DNA from: Eubacteriales bacterium
GTDB taxonomy: Bacteria > Bacillota > Clostridia > Oscillospirales > CAG-272
Assembly: GCA_045580835.1 (NCBI GenBank)
Contig: JAZNOM010000048.1
Coordinates: 21,908-85,907, forward strand
DNA: 64,000 nucleotides
Direction: 5' to 3'
Shown: positions 8,165-59,630 of the stretch, piece after piece
Numbering within the stretch: position 1 is the stretch's first letter
Layout: each line of letters begins with the position of its first letter
Notes under the pieces: model-generated
Told to the model about the DNA's origin: nothing
What the model saw: only the letters and a program-made list of their open reading frames with translations
The model's database searches: none
Position numbers and translations under genes: made by a program

Positions 8165-9339
8165 AAAGATTGATGTATTTTACGCTGGGTTATACTGTTT
8201 TTAAAATAAGTAACAACCATGCAAAAGAACTATTAAACTTTGCTAATATACATGGAATAAAACTGCTTTCATTTTGCGTAGACGAAAGTACGGCAAAAGC
8301 AAAAATCTATAGCCGTAACGAAAGAGAACTTTTTAATAAGCTTAAGAACTGCTGTATAGAATACGAGGTTATATGCCGCCGAGGAATTTTTCATACATTT
8401 AAAAAGTACCGTCATCGTGCAGGAATGATAATCGGTATTTTAGTTTTCTTTGCAGTAATGTATATCTCACCGATGTTTGTGTGGGAGATAAACGTAACAG
8501 GAATTGACAGATTAAACCGTTATTACATATGTGAATTGATTGAAAAAGAAGGAGTTTACATTGGTGCTTTTTCTCCTAATGTAGACCGAAAGGCACTATA
8601 CAGAAATATTCTGCGTACAAGTAAAGATATTTCGTGGATAAGCGTAAATTTTATTGGCAGTAGCGCGAATGTTGAGGTAGTCGAACGAGATTATAAAGAT
8701 ACCGCAAAAACGCTTGCAGACGGTGCCAATATTGTTGCAAGGAAAGACGGAAGAATCATTGAGTCGGATGTTATTTGCGGCAGACTTGTTACAAAGAGCG
8801 GCAGTGTTGTCAAAAAAGGCGATATTCTGGTAAGCGGTGTGTATGAAACTGCCAAAAGCGGGACACGGTATGTATATTCAAGCGCTAAAGTATACGCTAC
8901 AGTTTACGATGAATATATCACAGAAATACCGCTTAAAAGTAAAATGAAAGTATATGACGACGAAACGATTTCCGAGTGCTTTATAAGAATGTTTGGAAAA
9001 AGTGTAAATATTTTTAAAAACTATTCCATTTTAGATGGAAATTATGATACAATAAATAAAGATGTAACCTTGCCGTTGCCGGCGCTCAATAAACTTCCGC
9101 TTTCTTTTGAAATAGTTTCTGCACTTCCTTACTCATACGAAGATGTGCTGCTTACCGAAAACGAGGCTCTTGAGCACGCAAGACGCGAGTTTTATAAAAA
9201 ACTTGATACCGAGGCAGATTACATAGAAACGCTTTCCATTGAAGAAACCGTAACAGTAGAAAACTCTGTTTTGGTTTTACGGTGCAGCGTTGAAGCAGTT
9301 GAAAATATTGGCGCAACTGCCGAGTTTGAAATAAGGTAG
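8161..9339 (+). CDS. yqfD: sporulation protein YqfD
   Basis: 392 aa with a single central TM segment. Its position between yqfC and phoH matches the conserved Firmicutes cluster. Confidence 0.85.
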   Translation: MKRLMYFTLGYTVFKISNNHAKELLNFANIHGIKLLSFCVDESTAKAKIYSRNERELFNKLKNCCIEYEVICRRGIFHTFKKYRHRAGMIIGILVFFAVMYISPMFVWEINVTGIDRLNRYYICELIEKEGVYIGAFSPNVDRKALYRNILRTSKDISWISVNFIGSSANVEVVERDYKDTAKTLADGANIVARKDGRIIESDVICGRLVTKSGSVVKKGDILVSGVYETAKSGTRYVYSSAKVYATVYDEYITEIPLKSKMKVYDDETISECFIRMFGKSVNIFKNYSILDGNYDTINKDVTLPLPALNKLPLSFEIVSALPYSYEDVLLTENEALEHARREFYKKLDTEADYIETLSIEETVTVENSVLVLRCSVEAVENIGATAEFEIR

Positions 9340-9357
9340 TTGCTGAAAGGACAAAGG

Positions 9358-10359
9358 ATGCCGCGTAAAGTACTGTATACAGATTCCGCAGCGATGACTT
9401 CGACAATTTTTGGAACTTTTGATATTAACCTTCAAAAAATCGAGCAAAAGTTTGAGGTGAGAGTTTATAATAACGCGCTTGAACATGCGGATGGCGACGC
9501 CGTTATTATTGAAGGCGCTCACGATGACAATGTCGAAAAAGCATATAAAGCAATGGAGTTTTTAAAAAACATGTGTGCCGGCGGCGACCACTTGAGCGGT
9601 CAAACCGTTGACTATATCATCGGTATGGTGAGCGATGGCAGCGAAGATGAGCTTGCCGATTTTGATGACAGTTGCATCTGTATCACAAGCAGCGGCAAGC
9701 CTATAAAAGCAAAAACCGTTGGTCAGAAAAAGTATATAAATACTATAAAGAAAAACACCATAGTTTTGGGTGTCGGACCAGCAGGTACCGGTAAAACGTT
9801 TTTAGCGGTTGCAATGGCGGTAAAAGCACTCCGAGCGAAAGAAGTTAACCGTATCGTGCTGACTCGGCCTGCGGTTGAAGCAGGCGAAAGCCTTGGCTTT
9901 TTGCCCGGTGATTTGCAAAGCAAAATCGACCCCTATTTGCGGCCGCTTTACGATGCGCTTTTTGAAATGCTTGGAGCAGAAAACTACAACCGTCATCTTG
10001 AGAAGGGAACTATTGAAATCGCTCCACTTGCATATATGCGCGGCAGAACGCTTGACGATTCGTTTATTATTCTGGATGAAGCTCAAAACACCACTCCGGA
10101 GCAAATGAAGATGTTTTTAACCCGTCTCGGCTTCAATTCAAAGGCGATTGTTACGGGTGACCTTACACAAACCGACCTGCCCGGAGGAAAAAAGAGCGGT
10201 CTTGCAGCTGCAGTGAAAATTCTTGACGGCATAAACGGAATTGGCATACATCATTTTACCGAGCGCGATGTAGTGCGTCACCGTCTTGTACAGGAGATTA
10301 TCCTTGCATACGAAAAGTACGAAAAAGAAGCGCGCAAAGCGCCCGAGAGGAAGAAATGA
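9358..10359 (+). CDS. phoH: PhoH family ATPase (PhoH/YbeZ)
   Basis: Walker A GPAGTGKT, ILDEAQN, LTRLG..K..VTGD motifs. The ATG at 9358 follows the aaagga RBS (track ORF begins at a TTG at 9340). Confidence 0.95.
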   Translation: MPRKVLYTDSAAMTSTIFGTFDINLQKIEQKFEVRVYNNALEHADGDAVIIEGAHDDNVEKAYKAMEFLKNMCAGGDHLSGQTVDYIIGMVSDGSEDELADFDDSCICITSSGKPIKAKTVGQKKYINTIKKNTIVLGVGPAGTGKTFLAVAMAVKALRAKEVNRIVLTRPAVEAGESLGFLPGDLQSKIDPYLRPLYDALFEMLGAENYNRHLEKGTIEIAPLAYMRGRTLDDSFIILDEAQNTTPEQMKMFLTRLGFNSKAIVTGDLTQTDLPGGKKSGLAAAVKILDGINGIGIHHFTERDVVRHRLVQEIILAYEKYEKEARKAPERKK

Positions 10360-18167: not shown

Positions 18168-18251
18168 TGGTGCGGGTGACAGGACTTGAACCTGCACGTC
18201 GGGGACACTAGATCCTAAGTCTAGCGCGTCTGCCAATTCCGCCACACCCGC
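18168..18251 (-). tRNA. tRNA-Leu (anticodon TAG), CCA encoded
   Basis: The reverse complement folds as a class II tRNA: acceptor GCGGGTG/CACCCGC, anticodon arm CTAGA-CTTAGGA-TCTAG, long variable arm, T-arm GCAGGTTCAAGTCCTGT, 3' CCA. Confidence 0.95.
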
Positions 18252-51917: not shown

Positions 51918-51951
51918 AATCATAACCACTGGCACGGCCGGTGGTTATGAT
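51918..51951. terminator. hairpin between convergent genes
   Basis: atcataaccac tggcacggccg gtggttatgat, an 11-bp stem. Confidence 0.55.
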
Positions 51952-51976
51952 TTAGAGGTTAGATGAGAAAAATGTG

Positions 51977-53692
51977 TCATCCATTGAAATTAGTGGTGTG
52001 CGTACTAAATAGTTTCAGTATTTTAGGGAAATTAATTGACTTCATAAAATGTTCATAATTGTGGGAATCATACCTAGCGATTTTAAAAAGAGGAAGCCAC
52101 CACTTTGAATACATGATTTCCGATTGCCAATGGGTTGATCCTGTTTCCTTAATATAATGATCTTTGATTGAGCAGAATAAATCTTTATTCATGTTTTTAC
52201 CCGGTCGAACCATAGATGCTGCTATTAATGGATTGTATTGTTTTATCTTGAATTCGGAAATCATATGAGTTTTTTGCGTATCGGAAGAATGTTTGAATAG
52301 TATATAATAATACCAAATTTGCAAAAGTGTATCGGGATATTCGGTGTCTATCTTTTGCTGTTTATGCAACAAGGCGTTAAGAAGTGGATCTTTGTCAAAA
52401 GCTATGTTTAATAGAGTATCTAAAAGTCTGTACACATGACTTGACAATGAAACGTCTTCAAATCCTAGTTTTAATAAAAAGTAAAAAAGTTCATCAAATA
52501 TATCTTCGGGCGATAATTTTTCTGCTTCAATCTTTTTTTGCATTAGGCTGAGTAACGCACGTAGTTGTGAGGTACGGCTTTCACGAAGGCATTGACTAAT
52601 ATACTTTTTTAATGCAAAAAAGTCATCGAGATGCAGATTTTGAGTTTCTTCTGATAATTTTAGTTTAGGAAATTCGTGCTCTAACTCAGAGAGGTACGAG
52701 TGTTGAGCTGAATACACTGCGTGGCTTGTTTCGGTTTTGTTCCCATTTATACGAAGGCGATATTGGTTTAAAATCGATTGTATAGCGGGGTAGAGTGCAG
52801 TTAGTTCGCTCTCTGAATCGCTGAAAAAAGTAAGATCATCTACATAACGAACGTATCCGACAGGATGAGTTGTCCTCGAAAGAAGATTGCGAATTTCTTC
52901 GTCTACAGAAAGCATGCAGAGTTCTGCTGCTACATGTGAAGAAAAAGTGCCTGCTGGAATTCCTTTAGTTTGGTTATTATTTATACGTTGATGAAAAAGA
53001 TCAAGAAAACGGAAATAACGAGAATCTGCGTTAAAAGAGGTAAAGGGAGCTTTGTTTGCGATTTTTTCAAAATTATGTGTATAAAGATTAGGAAAAAAAG
53101 ATTCGACATCTAGTTTTAGCGTATATAGGTAGTCCGCTTCTGCTGCTAATAATCTTTTTTTGTTTTCGTTTAAAACGGAGGAACTGTTAATTTTATTGTT
53201 TTTAGTAGTAAAAGTTCCTGCTAAAACCCAGTCTTCCTCTTCATCATATGAGTGAAGAAGAAACGCCTCTTCAAATACTAGGTATGAATTAGAGTTTTTA
53301 ACTATATGCTCGTTGGCGGGATTAATATAGAGTTCTTCAAAAATTGAAGAAAATTCAAATAGTGTATTGTACATGAAAGATATGTAGTGAACAAGATGTG
53401 GAATTTGCATTTCCCGAAGGCTTTTGTTTTTCTTAAAATCAAAAAAACTAACAGCCTCTACGCCTGGACGGCGGATATGTATGGGAGAGACGATGCATTT
53501 GTAGTTAGTAATAAAGCCGTCAGGATCTTGTTCGTATTCTTGAGCATTTTGTGTATTGATTTCGTCAAATATGCTATCTATGTCAAGGATTAATTCGTTT
53601 ATATCTAGTATGTTTGGAAGCTCGGTGTACCACAGACCTGTAAGTAATAGTTCGGCATTTTTACGATAATTTTCAAAATTTAAATCAATCAT
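51977..53692 (-). CDS. standalone reverse transcriptase, Abi/DRT (defence-associated) type with an alpha-helical C-terminal domain
   Basis: RT motifs LDVESFFPNLYTH, GIPAGTFSSHVAAELCM, YVRYVDDLTFF (YxDD), LRINGNKTE. No maturase, endonuclease or intron features. The ATG at 53692 is 4 nt after GGAGGG. Confidence 0.88.
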   Translation of the reverse strand: MIDLNFENYRKNAELLLTGLWYTELPNILDINELILDIDSIFDEINTQNAQEYEQDPDGFITNYKCIVSPIHIRRPGVEAVSFFDFKKNKSLREMQIPHLVHYISFMYNTLFEFSSIFEELYINPANEHIVKNSNSYLVFEEAFLLHSYDEEEDWVLAGTFTTKNNKINSSSVLNENKKRLLAAEADYLYTLKLDVESFFPNLYTHNFEKIANKAPFTSFNADSRYFRFLDLFHQRINNNQTKGIPAGTFSSHVAAELCMLSVDEEIRNLLSRTTHPVGYVRYVDDLTFFSDSESELTALYPAIQSILNQYRLRINGNKTETSHAVYSAQHSYLSELEHEFPKLKLSEETQNLHLDDFFALKKYISQCLRESRTSQLRALLSLMQKKIEAEKLSPEDIFDELFYFLLKLGFEDVSLSSHVYRLLDTLLNIAFDKDPLLNALLHKQQKIDTEYPDTLLQIWYYYILFKHSSDTQKTHMISEFKIKQYNPLIAASMVRPGKNMNKDLFCSIKDHYIKETGSTHWQSEIMYSKWWLPLFKIARYDSHNYEHFMKSINFPKILKLFSTHTTNFNG

Positions 53693-53748
53693 ACTGCCCT
53701 CCATAATTTGCATTAAATCATTTGCCACGAATGTATACTTATGATATC

Positions 53749-53777
53749 AGTATACTCGTAGTTGGAAGTTAAATCAA
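53749..53777 (-). promoter_or_regulatory. sigma-A promoter for the RT gene
   Basis: Minus strand TTGATT, 17 nt, TATACT. The palindrome TGATATCA and two GTATAC sites overlap the -10/+1 region. Confidence 0.55.
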
Positions 53778-54120
53778 GATTTTCATTTGCATAATATATG
53801 GCGTAAGGGATCGAAATGTTATATTTGCCTAAAAATTTTCAGGCGTTTTGTCCTAGCTTTCTTTAATATTTGTTTTTGAGATTTGAAATTTCCGCTAAAA
53901 TGGCGGAGCCTTTAATGAAATAGCCCAAATTTTTATCGAGGCTATTTCTATGTGGTTAGATTTATGGTAACTGTAACATTATCAATAAAGATGTCTTCAT
54001 AACATATTTCAAACAGTCTTCCTTTGAGTTATTTAATGGTTATGCGTCTGAGTTGTTTGAATACAACTTGAGATCGCAAATATTTATATATTTGAGGAAA
54101 ATAACACTAATTGTACAATC

Positions 54121-54196
54121 TTAAGGCAGGAGTACTCAGCGCTATTTTTGCTCTATTTTGTAGAGCGGATTTAATAGGCGAATACTCCTGCCTTAA
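54121..54196. repeat. 76-bp imperfect palindrome with perfect 14-bp arms
   Basis: ttaaggcaggagta ... tactcctgccttaa, with inner pairs cgctatt/aataggcg and gctcta/tagagc. The GGCAGG(A/C)G core recurs at 54275..54282, 54324..54331, 54474..54481 and, in reverse, at 57202..57209. Confidence 0.8.
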
Positions 54197-54641
54197 TAGC
54201 ATTAAAAGCCTTATAAACGAAAGGATTTGAGACACATCGCCACTCTTACTTTTTGCATGACTGCACCCTAGTGTGGAGGCAGGAGTATTCATAGGAAAAC
54301 ACCTTCAAAAATGCGTAGTTAAGGCAGGCGAAGACATTAAAACTTTAAGGAAAATATTTTTTTGTGAATTTTTCTTTTTTCGCCACCCTAAAATGTCTGC
54401 GAAACCTTATAAAACATAGCGTTTTCGGACTATAAAAATTTAAGAATCGAAATCTTTTTCAGCCTAGTGTAGAGGCAGGCGAATTTGTTATGAAAAAGTG
54501 GATTTCTAAAATTTGCAGTAATAAACATAACACAGAATTCAAAACAGAGTGTTCACACACTTTGCAGAAATGAACCTAGGGGAATTTGTTGCAGGTATAT
54601 CAAGGCGAGGAAGATAAAAAGATGGAATAGTGTAGAGAGAG

Positions 54642-54684
54642 GAGTAACCCCCGAAAAACGCTTTGTGTTTTTCGGGGGTTACTC
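54642..54684. other. perfect 18-bp stem-loop (terminator-like, no clear U-tract)
   Basis: gagtaacccccgaaaaac gctttgt gtttttcgggggttactc. Confidence 0.6.
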
Positions 54685-54906
54685 TTGTAGGAACGAACAG
54701 GAAGAAGTTTTATCAGAGGGATCCCTTGCAGGAAAAATTCTGTGGAGGAATTGTTGTGTCAACCATACAGTTAGAAAGCGTGAGTGCTTTCTTTTTTTAT
54801 AGAGTTTCGTAGATTTTTGGAGAGACAGGGGAGAAATTACCTTGCAATTAATACTAATAGGAAACGAGAAATACATTTGTGTCAAATATATTTTGTGGAG
54901 GAATAA

Positions 54907-54935
54907 TTGCACGAATTGCTAAAACATGCTATAAT
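54907..54935 (+). promoter_or_regulatory. sigma-A promoter of the phosphatase/NUDIX/AbiH block
   Basis: TTGCAC, 17 nt, TATAAT. Confidence 0.65.
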
Positions 54936-54968
54936 TTTATTATAAAGTTATGGAAGTAGGTGTATTGC

Positions 54969-55571
54969 ATGAGATTATTAGTAATTCGTCACGGCGAGTC
55001 CGAAGCCGATTTATTAGATGTACACGAGGGACGAGCGGACTTTCAATTAACAGAAAGAGGACATAGGCAAGCCGAAGCTATGGCAAAATATGTCCGTGAT
55101 ACCTATAAAGTATCTGCTATTTATTGTAGTACTCTCAAGCGTGCATACCAAACTGCTGAACATTTATCTTATGAGTGTAGCATACCGCTTACACCCGATA
55201 AGAAACTCATGGAATTTAACAATGGACTTCTTGCCGGATTGGAAAGAAAAGTTGTGGAGGAGAAGTATCCTGAAGTGCGGGAGCTTCCTATACATGCTGC
55301 CGTTTATGAACAAGAATCTGTACTCGAATTTAGATATAGGGCTGAATATATACTTTCTAAAATAATTTCAGAAAATAACTCTGATGCGACCGTTGCTATC
55401 GTAACACACGGCGGCATGGTTAATCAGTTATACAGGTCATTTCTGAAGTTGTCAGTAGATTGCAATGTATTTTTTAATACAGGTGATACCGGCATACACG
55501 AATGGGTTTGTGCGAAAGATTATCGTTGTGTTGTTAAATCAAATTATACTGCACATACAGAAGGAATATAA
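54969..55571 (+). CDS. histidine phosphatase (phosphoglycerate mutase) family protein
   Basis: LLVIRHGESEAD (RHG catalytic motif), TERGHRQA, VTHGG. Confidence 0.85.
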   Translation: MRLLVIRHGESEADLLDVHEGRADFQLTERGHRQAEAMAKYVRDTYKVSAIYCSTLKRAYQTAEHLSYECSIPLTPDKKLMEFNNGLLAGLERKVVEEKYPEVRELPIHAAVYEQESVLEFRYRAEYILSKIISENNSDATVAIVTHGGMVNQLYRSFLKLSVDCNVFFNTGDTGIHEWVCAKDYRCVVKSNYTAHTEGI

Positions 55572-55619
55572 AAAACGAACAGGGACTGGCGATTTACTAA
55601 AGAAGAGTACTCTTGCGGA

Positions 55620-56149
55620 TTGCGTGTGGCTGGTGTTCTCATGTGTGATGGCGAAATACTAGTTCAAAAGGACAAATGCGGCAAAGAATATGCTTTACCG
55701 GATGGCGGTGTGCAAATTGGGGAGACTACCGAAACTGCACTTTCAAGAGAGTTTAAAGAAGAAATCGGAGCATTTATAGAAACAAAGAAGCTATTGTGGG
55801 TGAAAGAAATCTTTGGGGAGTGTATTGGCAAAAAAATCATGGCATTGTCTTTTATTATCTTATAGAAGCGAAAGATGGACTTTACATTCCCCACAATAGT
55901 GAGTTTGTTCTGCATAAGGATAATAGTAATGTTGTGATTGTCCGGATGCCGATTAGCGAGCTTGATAGCGTTACTATATATCACGAGTTATTAAAAGATT
56001 GGATTTGTCATTTGGAGAATGGGGGGCAGCGTTTTATAACGTATAGCGAATTAACATTTTTGAGGCAAAATATAAGACGTGAAATTGTTTACGAAAGTAA
56101 TGGAGAAGCTGTTACATTTATTCCAAGAGTGAATAGTAACAAAAGCTAG
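55620..56149 (+). pseudogene. NUDIX hydrolase, frameshifted at an A7 run
   Basis: NUDIX box GGVQIGETTETALSREFKEEIG lies in frame 1. The continuation NHGIVFYYLIEAKDG... lies in another frame. One extra A at 55830..55836 restores ...IGKKNHGIVFYY... No ATG start exists (TTG at best). Confidence 0.7.
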
Positions 56150-56192
56150 AAAGGTGATATTATTAAATACAAAAAGTTCAAGGAGAGGATTA

Positions 56193-57146
56193 ATGAGTTC
56201 GTTATTTATAGTTGGAAACGGATTTGATATTGCGCACGGTATTCAAACAAAGTATAGCGACTTTAGAACTTTTATTATAAATATGTTCCCACGAGCATTT
56301 GAGTTGCGAGACGAAATTGTATACCTGGAGGACTTCAAAAACATCGATTTAGCGGAATTTGCAGCGGAGATTTTGTTAAATGCAATGGATAAAGCTGCCG
56401 GTGAAGATTGGTTTAATTTTGAAGAAGCACTTGCTTATGTAAATTTTGACAACAAATTTCCATTACCTAATCACAGAGAAGATGAAACAGATGAATAAGA
56501 TCAGATGTTAATGACACGTTATCTATTATATATGGATATATTAACCGATTGCTATATTAAGTGTTCAAAGACATGGCAAGATTTTTTCAGGTTATGGATC
56601 AAAAGCATTCAAGCAAAAATTAACAATGGCAACTTCTCTGCAAAGGAATCATTAAAAGAACTTTTTAACGCTCCAGATATGCAATTTTTCAGTTTCAACT
56701 ACACCAAAACTTTACAAAAACTTTATGGAGTAAAAAAGGTGATTCATATACATAACCGCGTTGGACAAAAATTAATTTTTGGGCATGAAAAACGTGCTAC
56801 CGAAAGTCTTTATCAAAATATAAATTTTGACAAAGGAACATGTATTGGCTCTACTTTTTTAGATGACATGATTCTTTCTTTAAAAAAAGATACGGATTCC
56901 CCATTGAAAAAATATAATGATTTTTTCAGAAAACTAGATGGAAATATTGACAAAGTATATTCTTATGGATTTAGTTATGGAAAAGTTGACAGCATTTACA
57001 TTAAAAAGATATTAGATGGAATTTCGCCTAACGCTGTTTGGTATTTCACAACTTTTGAATCCAAAAATACTGAAGCGTTTAGAATTAAAAAAATCAAATT
57101 ACGAAATTATGGGTTTAAAGGTCAATTTGGTATTTATACAGGATAA
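56193..57146 (+). pseudogene. abiH: AbiH family abortive-infection protein interrupted by one in-frame TAA
   Basis: LFIVGNGFDIAHGIQTKYSDF is the AbiH N-terminal signature. ORFs 56154..56498 and 56505..57146 share a frame, separated only by the TAA at 56496..56498. Combined length is 318 codons. Confidence 0.78.
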
Positions 57147-57282: not shown

Positions 57283-57487
57283 GCAGGTTAAGATTTCACT
57301 ATATCAAGGGGGTACTATACCTTTTTGAGGATTGTGGAACGGATTGACACCAAACAATTTATAGGATAACAAAACATTTATTAGAGCCAGAACACACATT
57401 AGTATCTTTGGGTACCCATGTGTGTTTTTCTTTTTCTGCTATGTCTCGTCTAAACGGTACTGACAAATTATAGCGGAGGTGATGCCT

Positions 57488-57811
57488 ATGAATATAGACC
57501 TCAAGTCACAAGCCAATAACTGCGATAACAAGGAATATATTGACAACTTTTCTTACAAAGAAGCGGAAAAAGAATGGAAATCACTTTTTGATAGCGTACT
57601 AATCGATATTATAATAGACGAATATGAAAATACAGAACTAGTAAAAGCAATACTAGCACTTACTAGAAATGAACGTATCGTAATTATTCTGAATTTTGTA
57701 GAAGGAATGACACCTAAAGAAATCAGCGACATAATGGATATAAGAACAAATAATGCGTATGTACATAAAAACCAAGCATTAAAGAAACTTAGAGCAAAAT
57801 TGACACAGTAG
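57488..57811 (+). CDS. small sigma-70 region-4-like HTH protein (mobile-element regulator type)
   Basis: LTRNERIVIILNFVEGMTPKEISDIMDIRTNNAYVHKNQALKKLR. The ATG at 57488 is 8 nt after GGAGG. Confidence 0.75.
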   Translation: MNIDLKSQANNCDNKEYIDNFSYKEAEKEWKSLFDSVLIDIIIDEYENTELVKAILALTRNERIVIILNFVEGMTPKEISDIMDIRTNNAYVHKNQALKKLRAKLTQ

Positions 57812-57823
57812 GGAGGCGATATA

Positions 57824-58051
57824 TTGAAAAAAGAGAATAATACTTCTCAAGAATTACTGTACACAATCAGCGAAGCAGCAGCAATTCTGAAGATAAACAA
57901 AAACTTTGTTTATACCCTAATAGGGCGAGGATATCTTAAATCTATCAAACTCGGTTGCCGTAAAGTCACACGAAAATCTTTGCTTGAATTCTTGGATAAA
58001 TATGACGGCTTAAATTTCGATGAAATATTAGCTTGCGAAACAGATGACTAA
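57824..58051 (+). CDS. xis: excisionase-family / MerR-like HTH DNA-binding protein
   Basis: LYTISEAAAILKINKNFVYTLIGRGYLKSIKLG.RKVTRKSLLEFL. TTG start 7 nt after GGGAGG. Confidence 0.75.
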   Translation: MKKENNTSQELLYTISEAAAILKINKNFVYTLIGRGYLKSIKLGCRKVTRKSLLEFLDKYDGLNFDEILACETDD

Positions 58052-58676: not shown

Positions 58677-58886
58677 TTATATAGCCGCTCCGCGAGATTT
58701 TATATAAATATCAATGTCGTTATTTATATAGTTATGACCTGTGGTATGAAGAATATCGTAAAACTCGTTAATATAATCATATACGCCATATTCTCTAAAC
58801 AATTTAGCAACATCTTTTCCACTTATTTTACGATAGTTTTTATAACTTTCCAAACAAAATATTGTAAATGCTAATTTTTTACTCAT
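58677..58886 (-). CDS. DUF3791 family protein
   Basis: FTIFCLESYKNYRKISGKDVAKLFREYGVYDYINEFYDILHTTG matches the DUF3791 pattern as I remember it. Confidence 0.7.
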   Translation of the reverse strand: MSKKLAFTIFCLESYKNYRKISGKDVAKLFREYGVYDYINEFYDILHTTGHNYINNDIDIYIKSRGAAI

Positions 58887-58897
58887 ATAATGACTCC

Positions 58898-59134
58898 TTA
58901 TACATCAGGGAACACAATGGTTCCTGTTGTTTTCTCTTGTAGCAACAGCGAATAAAGCATATCGGTACTGTACTGCCATACTTTAGTTTCTTCATCTTCA
59001 AGTTCCTCATATAGTTTTGAAGAATAAAGCATTTGAATCGCATCTTCATTTGATAAATTTTGTTTATTTACAATCATAGCAACTAAGTCTGCACTAATAT
59101 AAGGCATCATTGCTAAAAATTGATCCTGTCCCAT
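58898..59134 (-). CDS. DUF3791-like protein (second paralogue)
   Basis: LYSSKLYEELEDEETKVWQYSTDMLYSLL. Adjacent to the other DUF3791 gene and to the DUF3990 gene. Confidence 0.6.
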   Translation of the reverse strand: MGQDQFLAMMPYISADLVAMIVNKQNLSNEDAIQMLYSSKLYEELEDEETKVWQYSTDMLYSLLLQEKTTGTIVFPDV

Positions 59135-59144
59135 ATTTTTCTCC

Positions 59145-59630
59145 TTATTTAATTTCTTTAGCTTCTAAAAACTTTAGATAAGAAAGAGCTTTGTTTGTAT
59201 GCAGAGTCCATTGATCATGCAATACTTCTGTCTTAAGCTTTTTTACAGTATATTCAGCATCATAAGCACCTGTTTCAAAAAGGCGAATAGATTGATATAT
59301 ATTATCATCAGCCACGGGGCCGATATACAAATCATGTATTACTGTGCTTTCAGCTCCTTTGCGATTGCTTACTACAAAATCTAACCAATTTTCATCGGCT
59401 GTTTTAAATTCTTCAAAGCTAAGCTCGCCTCTTGCTTTCTCAAAGTCAAATTCATAAACTGATACATATCCAATTTTAATATTATTTCTGCGCATTTTTA
59501 TTCTTGCCCAACGCTCAGCTTGTTCGTATGAAGTAGTAGTATAAAAGCCAACACCAAAGTCTAAATATACATCGCCCTTTCGTATCTCCGGTTTATCAAC
59601 AAGATCAGTGCTGCCATGATATAAAATCAT
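59145..59630 (-). CDS. DUF3990 family protein
   Basis: MILYHGS...DFGVGFYTTTSYEQAERWA is the typical DUF3990 N-terminus. Overlaps the upstream gene by 4 nt. Confidence 0.75.
   Translation of the reverse strand: MILYHGSTDLVDKPEIRKGDVYLDFGVGFYTTTSYEQAERWARIKMRRNNIKIGYVSVYEFDFEKARGELSFEEFKTADENWLDFVVSNRKGAESTVIHDLYIGPVADDNIYQSIRLFETGAYDAEYTVKKLKTEVLHDQWTLHTNKALSYLKFLEAKEIK

Follow-up and report, generated by a model that had tools for sequence, protein, structure and literature searches.

Does a stretch of structured non-coding DNA that lies beside a defence-type reverse transcriptase (RT) encode an RNA copied by that enzyme, or can the two be neighbours that do not work together? The question is raised by a locus in a 64,000-nucleotide stretch of the genome of an Eubacteriales bacterium (contig JAZNOM010000048.1 of assembly GCA_045580835.1; this whole stretch is called the window hereafter, and position 1 is its first letter). 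A gene for an RT of 571 residues lies there on the minus strand, and the DNA upstream of it, at about 53.7-54.9 kb, is rich in repeats and hairpins. An initial annotation had proposed that this upstream region encodes a structured non-coding RNA (ncRNA) serving the RT as a template. The RT is a member of the UG31 group, of the Class 1 type, and a stand-alone defence enzyme; the upstream region holds a conserved non-coding element (hereafter the element), which was found again in a related genome at a locus with no RT. The locus as a whole is likely to combine a Class 1 UG31 RT that does without an ncRNA and a separate conserved non-coding element beside it, and we consider it very likely that RT and element are independent of each other.

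Classification of the reverse transcriptase

The minus-strand open reading frame (ORF) extends over 51977..53728, and its likeliest start is the ATG at 53692, with a GGAGGG ribosome-binding site five bases before it. ORF, translation and the match to RVT_1, the only Pfam domain found in the protein (E 1e-14), agree on an RT with a YVDD motif, as first described. Among the PADLOC profiles, RT_UG31 matched the protein over profile positions 2-448 of 456 (RT residues 14-557; E 1.8e-98, 329 bits), far ahead of every other UG or Abi profile, the runners-up being Drt6 (2e-35), AbiK (1.6e-31), UG30, Drt4, Drt3b and AbiP2 (1.7e-21). A profile of the RT family matched DRT6 (2.8e-21), Abi-P2 (2.7e-20), AbiK (5.5e-15) and DRT4 (1.5e-14), and its alignment to AbiK covers the C-terminal helical domain, to position 535; DRT2 was matched at about E 5e-8 across 95 residues, and DRT9 was absent among the profile matches. 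An exact look-up of the window's own RT and histidine phosphatase sequences found neither on record.

A structural model was built with AlphaFold on an alignment of 42 homologues of 38-71% identity (alignment A1). In this model (pLDDT 86, pTM 0.88), the RT core is followed by about 12 helices over residues 355-560, which are modelled at pLDDT >90. When the model was compared with the PDB using Foldseek, UG15/DRT4 (TM 0.67/0.71) and DRT6 (TM 0.64/0.72) were similar over the full length, as were AbiK and Abi-P2 (TM 0.5-0.6) and AbiA; DRT2 (query-normalised TM 0.32), DRT9 (0.23-0.32), the retron RTs and the group II intron RTs were similar in the RT core only. PADLOC, AlphaFold and Foldseek agree with the initial annotation in assigning the protein to the Abi-type RTs with a helical C-terminus.

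A retron consists of an RT of about 300-350 residues, an upstream msr/msd ncRNA and an effector gene. A retron was rejected here given the length of 571 residues, the helical C-terminus, the lack of a retron RNA in Rfam and the lack of an adjacent effector gene. A group II intron RT was rejected as well, since the protein has no match to a maturase (X) domain (neither GIIM nor Intron_maturas2 in Pfam) and Rfam scans found no intron RNA near the RT. The description of the RT as free of any intron, maturase or retron context holds.

RTs to which a helical alphaRep domain is fused form Class 1, and groups with an ncRNA (UG2, UG28, UG17, UG27 and others) form Class 2 (PMC9226505). The RT of the window has an intact YxDD motif and a helical HEAT-like repeat (alphaRep) domain fused to the RT domain, and neither by sequence nor by structure is it closest to UG2, UG28, UG17 or UG3. 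In the text of Mestre et al. 2022, UG31 is not named among the Class 2 groups, no ncRNA is described for it, and a defence role is predicted from loci with strong defence-association signatures (PMC9226505). Experimental work on UG31 was not found in the literature. In the Class 1 enzymes that have been studied, DNA synthesis is untemplated and mostly protein-primed, and DRT4 and DRT6 are single-gene systems in which an ncRNA is not needed (PMC12783706, PMC13174585, PMC9508834). By analogy, untemplated and protein-primed DNA synthesis is most likely for the present RT too. The priming residue of DRT4 is Tyr125 of the palm subdomain (PMC12783706); in the window RT, Tyr149 can be put forward as a candidate from its alignment with relatives, and it sits inside a low-confidence loop (residues 141-156) of the AlphaFold model.

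Loci of homologous reverse transcriptases

At least 203 homologues of the UG31 type were found at E <= 0.001, and the family occurs in gut Clostridia. Fourteen loci of homologous RTs for which gene calls or ORF lists were available (from L001-L008 and L091-L100; 42-71% identity) were compared. The neighbours of the RT vary at each locus (KilA-N and a recombinase, a type I restriction-modification (R-M) S subunit, Fic, a tyrosine integrase, a radical-SAM/SET operon, peptidases), and the type I R-M, TIR, Fic, KilA-N and recombinase genes in the surroundings place the homologues in a defence or mobile-element setting. In the loci with gene calls, the RT lies 109, 156, 158, 198, 230, 509 or 755 bp from the upstream gene and 19 to about 770 bp from the downstream gene. 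No DNA was common to distinct loci within 300 bp upstream and 400 bp downstream of the RT. The window sequence 53693-54960 had no blastn match in any RT-homologue locus, and the box motif of the element (see below) occurred in none of them; among the 102 loci fetched, its only occurrence was an isolated match from a single metagenome scan (L010), with no flanking similarity and judged to be due to chance. Three homologues with long upstream spacers had no comparable architecture of repeats and hairpins. A conserved structured non-coding flank, as would mark a Class 2 system, is lacking across the RT homologues. Since their flanks are unshared, variable in length and without the boxes, the RT family looks like a self-contained, single-gene cassette.

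Some further arrangements were seen among the homologues. A UG31 homologue of 58% identity (L092 5771-9752, L093 2060-6041) is followed after 19 bp by radical-SAM, SET-domain, short-chain dehydrogenase and PAD_porph genes on the same strand, which may be an operon fusion and was seen at no other locus. A UG31-like RT of 42% identity (L095-L100) always lies 156 bp behind a type I R-M methylase and S subunit; it is indexed in 484 collection blocks, of which 24 contigs were read, and one source names a cluster member Blautia sp. In some of these contigs, additional RT genes follow within 2 kb, among them a group II intron RT that has a maturase domain. A 2.7-kb Logan contig (P0242) encodes an RT at least 90% identical to that of the window. 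In the viral contigs of IMG/VR, which were scanned for relatives of the RT, only distant RTs (22-35% identity over the core) were found and not used as loci, and carriage of UG31 by phages is not evident there.

Architecture of the non-coding element

The element (Table 1) contains two degenerate tandem units of about 196 bp, at 54121-54316 and 54317-54512, which align to each other with a score of 15.5 (shuffles, -5.6 +/- 5.0). Each unit has three boxes, namely box1 (TTAAGGCAGGAGTA in unit 1, TTAAGGCAGGCGAA in unit 2), an inverted copy of it 42-45 nt downstream (box1'), and box2 (CCTAGTGTRGAGGCAGGMGWATT), about 80 nt beyond box1'; box1' is complementary to box1 as well as to box2. In the palindrome 54121-54196, the arms of 17 nt are 94% complementary, with the outer 14 nt perfect. 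Another box2-like copy at 54628 leads into hairpin 3. The sequence TAGTGTRGAGGCAGGMG is present in three copies, against 0.22 expected, and the core AGGCAGGMGWA in five, against 0.08 expected; the copies of both are confined to 54.12-54.65 kb of the window. Compared with shuffled sequences, the region 54115-54805 folds with z = -5.9 on the plus strand and z = -8.2 on the minus strand. The 76-bp palindrome with perfect 14-bp arms, the repeated boxes, the smaller hairpins and the 18-bp stem-loop that the initial annotation had listed are thus all present, and repeats and folding exceed chance. On the plus strand, a repeat YTTGCAGR was observed in addition at 54513, 54562, 54589 and 54726, in the 3' half of the element, together with a TTGTAG at 54683; it has four copies in the window, seven in the orthologous locus described below (L103) and none on the minus strand.

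Upstream of the RT, up to the histidine phosphatase gene, no credible ORF was found, and a search for pseudogene remnants gave no Pfam match at E <= 1 for the ten longest of 24 stop-free six-frame pieces (>=30 aa), in keeping with the region having been called ORF-free. In tblastx between the window and L103, the six frames are about equally similar, which indicates that the element is non-coding; small ORFs behind Shine-Dalgarno-like boxes were rejected as candidates, given that start codons or frames are not kept between the two sequences and that the six frames are alike. Scanning of the whole window against Rfam 15 at gathering score gave a tRNA at 18171-18251 as the sole match, and a permissive scan (E <= 5) of 51.5-55.2 kb returned only sub-threshold noise (psRNA14, miRNA hairpins, His_leader). 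The sequence 53693-54960 had no blastn match in phage and plasmid collections. In viral contigs scanned for the exact motifs, one isolated 17-mer match (L009) was found, with nothing else similar, and the hairpin arm was not found. Several known element types were considered and rejected. As read from the sequence, the palindrome ends in TTAAGGC...GCCTTAA rather than in the RYYYAAC...GTTRRRY of an integron attC site, and no integrase was seen; a CRISPR array, a T-box, PyrR, TRAP or RAT sites and REP/BIME sequences were dismissed on spacing, missing motifs or occurrence at a single locus.

An orthologous locus without the reverse transcriptase

A 21.9-kb Logan contig (L103), of which 16.5 kb was examined, was reached via the 90%-identity protein cluster to which the histidine phosphatase of the window belongs. 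It is syntenic with the window, with 86-89% DNA identity in the PBP-like genes, 83% in the histidine phosphatase and NUDIX genes and 88% in a sigma-70-r4/HTH_17 gene pair. The element is present in L103, where it spans about 8.05-9.08 kb: window positions 54073-54634 correspond to L103 8049-8605 (86.7% identity) and 54628-54783 to 8791-8946 (86.5% identity). L103 has an additional unit of about 185 bp (8606-8790), at window position 54634/54635. It was observed that this breakpoint in unit copy number falls in box2-like ATAGTGTA sequences, as unequal recombination between units would give. No RT is found at the syntenic locus of L103. The window from 50.93 to 54.07 kb, which contains the RT, a spacer of 380 bp, a 76-aa ORF and the end of a 915-aa protein, is unrelated to the corresponding 3.24-8.04 kb of L103, with other surface-protein genes and a leucine-rich repeat (LRR) fragment, and similarity between the two sequences starts about 20-50 bp ahead of hairpin 1.

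From there on, the element is as conserved as the flanking coding genes (about 87% compared with 83-89%), and its conservation is a mosaic in which hairpin 1 is identical at 75 of 76 positions, the boxes at 100% and the block 54441-54634 at about 93%, the spacer 54218-54262 being only about two-thirds identical. The comparison indicates that the element is part of the conserved backbone and that the RT lies in a variable segment abutting it. Since the element is retained in L103, where the RT is absent, it appears to be independent of the RT. Two further loci with histidine phosphatase homologues of 74-78% identity (L101 and L102) have other upstream genes and no element, and are too distant to inform on this point.

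Considered together, these results do not bear out the proposal that the region encodes a template RNA of the RT: the enzyme is of the Class 1 type, the flanks of its homologues are unshared, and the element occurs in L103 with no RT, which contradicts the proposal. The initial annotation had itself named the outcome that would speak against the proposal, which is what we observe, namely that the RT groups with the template-independent AbiK, Abi-P2, DRT4 and DRT6 enzymes and that its homologues are without a conserved non-coding flank.

Compensatory pairing and strand bias

Pairing was counted in two units of the window and three of L103, five in all. The units are distinguished by two positions (AGTA vs CGAA), which differ in all three boxes of a unit. 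In the box1:box1' stem, 86% of the cells are paired; sliding the partners lowers this to 32-46%. Three of its pairs have changed on both sides, and no shuffle attained the covariation score. For box1':box2, 81% of the cells are paired (33-53% when slid), and three pairs are again changed on both sides; one of these double changes postdates the split of the two genomes, a C-to-T in box1' and a G-to-A in box2 of L103 unit 2, where box1 retains its G and would form a G.U pair on the plus strand. In the stem of hairpin 3, all four substitutions between the window and L103 make up two compensatory pairs (13/63, A-U vs G-C; 23/53, C-G vs U-A), and none is disruptive. Compensatory changes of this kind point to selection on base pairing.

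The element is also strongly biased between strands. Over its 822 nt, GGA is found 25 times on the plus and twice on the minus strand, and AGGA 14 times and once, a count of 14 being attained by none of 500 dinucleotide shuffles; for this bias, the element is the most extreme 822-nt segment of the window on either strand. The element of L103 is biased in the same way (GGA, 25 vs 6; AGGA, 14 vs 1). Both this bias and the changes compatible with G.U pairing favour an RNA transcribed from the plus strand, on which the downstream genes lie as well, the RT being on the other strand. A separate, divergent transcript had been allowed for in the initial annotation, and this part is upheld, in that the element, if transcribed, would be a unit of its own on the plus strand.

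Neighbouring genes and other features

Coordinates are collected in Table 1. Promoter-like sites in 51.5-55.2 kb are at chance level (17, compared with 14.3 +/- 3.7 in shuffles), so that the promoter previously assigned to the RT exists as a motif match but has no statistical weight. In the loci L001 and L002, a perfect TTGACA-17-TATAAT lies 77-105 bp before the RT start, and the TTGATT-17-TATACT of the window occupies the corresponding place. The spacer between the RT and the element folds with z = -3.0 relative to shuffles; it has no blastn or tblastx match to L103 and none to the regions upstream of the RT homologues. Target-site duplications or terminal repeats flanking the RT gene were looked for, and none were found.

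Table 1. Features of the RT locus and of the adjoining non-coding element (window coordinates).
Feature	Position	Strand	Evidence or remark
Terminator-like hairpin of 16 bp, flanked by the 3' end of the RT gene and the converging 76-aa ORF	51918..51952		Arms 94% complementary, 3-nt loop
Stand-alone reverse transcriptase, 571 aa, UG31	51977..53692	minus	ORF and translation, Pfam, PADLOC
C-terminal all-helical repeat domain, alphaRep-like, residues ~355-560	52013..52630	minus	AlphaFold, Foldseek, profile alignment to AbiK
Catalytic YVDD, residues 283-286	52835..52846	minus	Translation; Y283, V284, D285 and D286 invariant in 42 homologues
Tyr149, candidate priming tyrosine	53246..53248	minus	Invariant in A1; DRT6 Tyr aligns with Tyr149
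AT-rich RT-proximal spacer with small hairpins, in variable segment	53693..54072		No counterpart in L103 or other RT loci
Promoter-like site TTGATT-17-TATACT for the RT	53749..53777	minus	Motif match; such matches at chance frequency
Conserved non-coding element: degenerate ~190-bp tandem units, hairpins, conserved blocks	54089..54910	plus	~87% identity to L103
Hairpin 1 (box1 : box1')	54121..54196	plus	75/76 nt identical in L103
Unit 1 box2, CCTAGTGTGGAGGCAGGAGTATTC	54266..54290	plus	Perfect complement of box1' (54180-54193); 100% conserved in L103
Unit 2 hairpin, degenerate, 11/14 pairs	54317..54393	plus	Both arms with unit-specific CGAA variant; pairs 15/70, 17/68, 20/65 changed on both sides
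Longest highly conserved block	54441..54634	plus	~93% identity to L103; contains 3/4 TTGCAG repeats
Unit 2 box2, CCTAGTGTAGAGGCAGGCGAATTT	54463..54486	plus	L103: G-to-A here matched by C-to-T in box1'
Hairpin 3, perfect 18-bp stem, extends to ~22 pairs	54642..54684	plus	Compensatory changes vs L103
Histidine phosphatase gene, right boundary of element	54969..55571	plus	Pfam His_Phos_1 E 1.2e-37; L103 orthologue in same 90%-identity cluster

Directly before the histidine phosphatase gene, a near-consensus promoter (TTGCAC-17-TATAAT with an upstream TG) is found at 54908-54936 on the plus strand. Since this gene has a promoter-like site of its own, it would need no read-through from the element in the window. 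In L103, a 247-aa protein of the Mor family (late transcriptional activator-like) is encoded between the element and the histidine phosphatase (9166-9909, plus strand); this gene is absent from the window at about 54.80-54.93 kb, where only short conserved blocks on either side of the site remain. The NUDIX gene that follows (55572-56149, plus strand) appears frameshifted, with the switch around 55.79-55.89 kb, and its halves align in different frames to the intact 158-aa NUDIX ORF of L103 (10608-11084). Behind it lies a second variable spot, occupied in the window by an AbiH-family gene and in L103 by an unrelated Cass2-like gene and a membrane protein. The AbiH gene (56154-57146, plus strand) has a single in-frame stop at 56499-56501 (...DETDE*DQMLM...), and its halves match profile positions 1-71 and 110-259; the interrupted gene is either a pseudogene or the result of a sequencing error.

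A DUF3990 protein (58677-59630, minus strand) is the PADLOC candidate PDC-M13A (E 4.5e-54), with a 78-aa ORF and a DUF3791 protein encoded directly downstream of it. The interrupted AbiH gene and this PDC-M13-like DUF3990/DUF3791 set are within 6 kb of the RT, and with RT, AbiH and the DUF3990 set the region of 52-60 kb is a defence-gene-rich stretch, in line with the defence role predicted for UG31 (PMC9226505). At 57479-58051 (plus strand), genes for a sigma-70 region 4 protein and for an HTH_17 (excisionase-like) protein form a pair, with no integrase adjacent, and the same pair is present in L103. It resembles the regulatory module of Tn916-type elements, of which it may be a remnant.

Discussion

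If the RT of the window behaves like DRT4/UG15, DRT6/UG12, AbiK and Abi-P2, it would form an oligomer and synthesise single-stranded DNA without a nucleic-acid template, primed from its own tyrosine, and the DNA made during phage infection would lead to abortive infection. The enzyme would do so without an ncRNA, transcribed from its own promoter, in a variable and defence-rich spot of the chromosome. The element would belong to the chromosomal backbone upstream of the histidine phosphatase and NUDIX genes. In each of its units, box1', the 3' arm of the hairpin, could pair alternatively with box1 or with the downstream box2 in a switch-like manner, and the element would terminate in a very stable, conserved hairpin. 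The reading of the element that we favour, though tentatively, is that of a structured RNA from the plus strand, rich in (A)GGA, which would serve the downstream operon as a long leader or stand alone as an ncRNA. A more specific form of this proposal is somewhat unlikely to be right in all its parts: the element would be an undescribed large structured RNA of gut Oscillospiraceae, composed of tandem switch modules and acting as a regulatory leader or as an RNA that sequesters proteins or ribosomes, and its left edge would be a spot where defence cargo, the UG31 RT for instance, is exchanged.

Several points weigh against these interpretations. No Rfam family matches the element, and no third copy of it was found in the sequences searched. 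The covariation comes from two genomes and from paralogous units, with about 2-4 independent events, and could be mimicked by concerted evolution of DNA recombination sites. A U-tract next to hairpin 3 is absent on both strands, and a terminator-like hairpin on the plus strand (54773-54792) is not conserved in L103. The plus-strand promoter TTGAGG-16-TACAAT of the initial annotation is present as a motif match, but such matches are at chance frequency and its -10 (TACAAT) is not conserved in L103. As for the RT, its mechanism and the role of Tyr149 are deduced by analogy with relatives sharing only 14-17% sequence identity. The difference between the two loci may have arisen in either direction, by insertion of the RT in the lineage of the window or by its loss in that of L103, and, as far as comparative data go, the window RT might still use the element in trans or in a manner specific to its lineage.

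That the region at 53.7-54.9 kb encodes a structured ncRNA which is bound and copied by the RT, as in retrons, DRT2, DRT3, DRT9 and DRT10, is nevertheless highly improbable. It is true that RT and region are adjacent, that the region is strongly structured and conserved, and that several defence RTs use neighbouring ncRNAs (PMC9226505, PMC12632851); CACACA, the template motif of DRT3, is found at about 54.55 kb, yet about 0.6 occurrences per 1.2 kb are expected by chance. Against this stand the Class 1, not Class 2, type of the RT, the finding of a conserved flank or boxes in 0/14 homologous loci, some of which leave just 109 bp upstream or 19 bp downstream of the RT, the survival of the element in L103 with no RT, and a strand bias that runs opposite to the RT gene.

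It could also be that the element acts as DNA, its boxes serving as partner sites of a recombinase or of a DNA-binding regulator (such as the Mor-family protein of L103), or forming single-strand or cruciform structures that mark a hot spot of cargo exchange. In favour of this are boxes of 20-30 bp that are 100% conserved and arranged in direct and inverted orientation, and concerted change of partner sites would be expected of recombination sites too; the number of units varies between the genomes by gain or loss of 185 bp between box2-like sequences, the variable segment with the RT starts within about 20 bp of the element's left edge, and the Mor-family gene adjoins the element in L103. However, no recombinase gene was seen in the window at 43.8-59.6 kb, in a scan that was not exhaustive, or in the 16.5 kb of L103, and the inverted boxes are separated by just 42 and 83 bp, a short distance for an invertible segment. 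In addition, the (A)GGA asymmetry over 800 bp and the plus-strand G.U-compatible changes have no obvious reason at the DNA level, and the element has been kept in the window although the Mor-family gene is absent there; a role as DNA, though a serious alternative, is unlikely in our view. Functionless decay, by which the region would be a tandem duplication that has degenerated, or what is left of a mobile element (a MITE or an IS end), might explain the damaged genes at the locus (the in-frame stop in AbiH and the frameshifted NUDIX), the degenerate hairpin of unit 2, which is decayed further in L103, and the lack of a database relative. But a conservation equal to that of the flanking coding genes, with blocks at 93-100% identity in a mosaic, and stem substitutions in hairpin 3 that are all compensatory would not be expected of decaying DNA, so that this explanation is quite improbable; within the 64 kb of the window, the lack of another copy speaks against a multicopy MITE.

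With the RT regarded as a Class 1 enzyme working without the element, the locus helps to untangle an annotation problem, in that a defence RT beside structured DNA need not use an ncRNA, and the UG class (Class 1, alphaRep) would correctly predict that none is needed. With a single compact gene, UG31 is a candidate in which untemplated, protein-primed synthesis may extend to another branch of Class 1. The element is a conserved, strand-biased, modular array of hairpins without a curated relative; on the evidence of two genomes, it is a candidate for a new ncRNA or recombination-related site in uncultured gut bacteria.

Among known RNAs, those of the CsrB/RsmZ type with GGA repeats offer a functional analogy only. 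Like them, the element is GGA-rich on one strand (25 GGA in 822 nt, with several CAGGA and GCAGGA) and has a modular, hairpin-rich layout; in contrast to CsrB, its motif density is about half, its units are much larger and several motifs lie inside stems, and there is no sequence or Rfam relationship to CsrB or RsmZ. We know of no sponge RNA of the CsrB type described in Clostridia.

As to the RT, the systems DRT2/UG2, DRT9/UG28, DRT10/UG17, DRT3 and the retrons are defence RTs as well, several of them with a structured ncRNA in the adjoining intergenic region, but they have features that are not found with the window RT, such as a SLATT gene, a second RT, an effector gene or msr/msd. AbiK and Abi-P2 are template-independent and protein-primed, and form a branch more distant from the window RT than UG31, DRT6 and DRT4; their priming residues, Tyr44 and Tyr61, are in a fingers loop, elsewhere than Tyr149 (PMC9508834). 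DRT4 (UG15) and DRT6 (UG12) have the same layout of RT and alphaRep in one gene, with no partner RNA or protein, although they share just 14-17% identity with the window RT and Tyr125 of DRT4 is not obviously conserved, the candidate here being Tyr149. Hexamer formation, synthesis of random single-stranded DNA and triggering by a phage DNA-binding protein can be extended from them to the window RT by analogy only. The closest correspondence is with the UG31 group itself (PMC9226505, PADLOC RT_UG31), whose profile the window RT fits nearly from end to end; nothing contradicts its membership, and it stands alone beside other defence genes.

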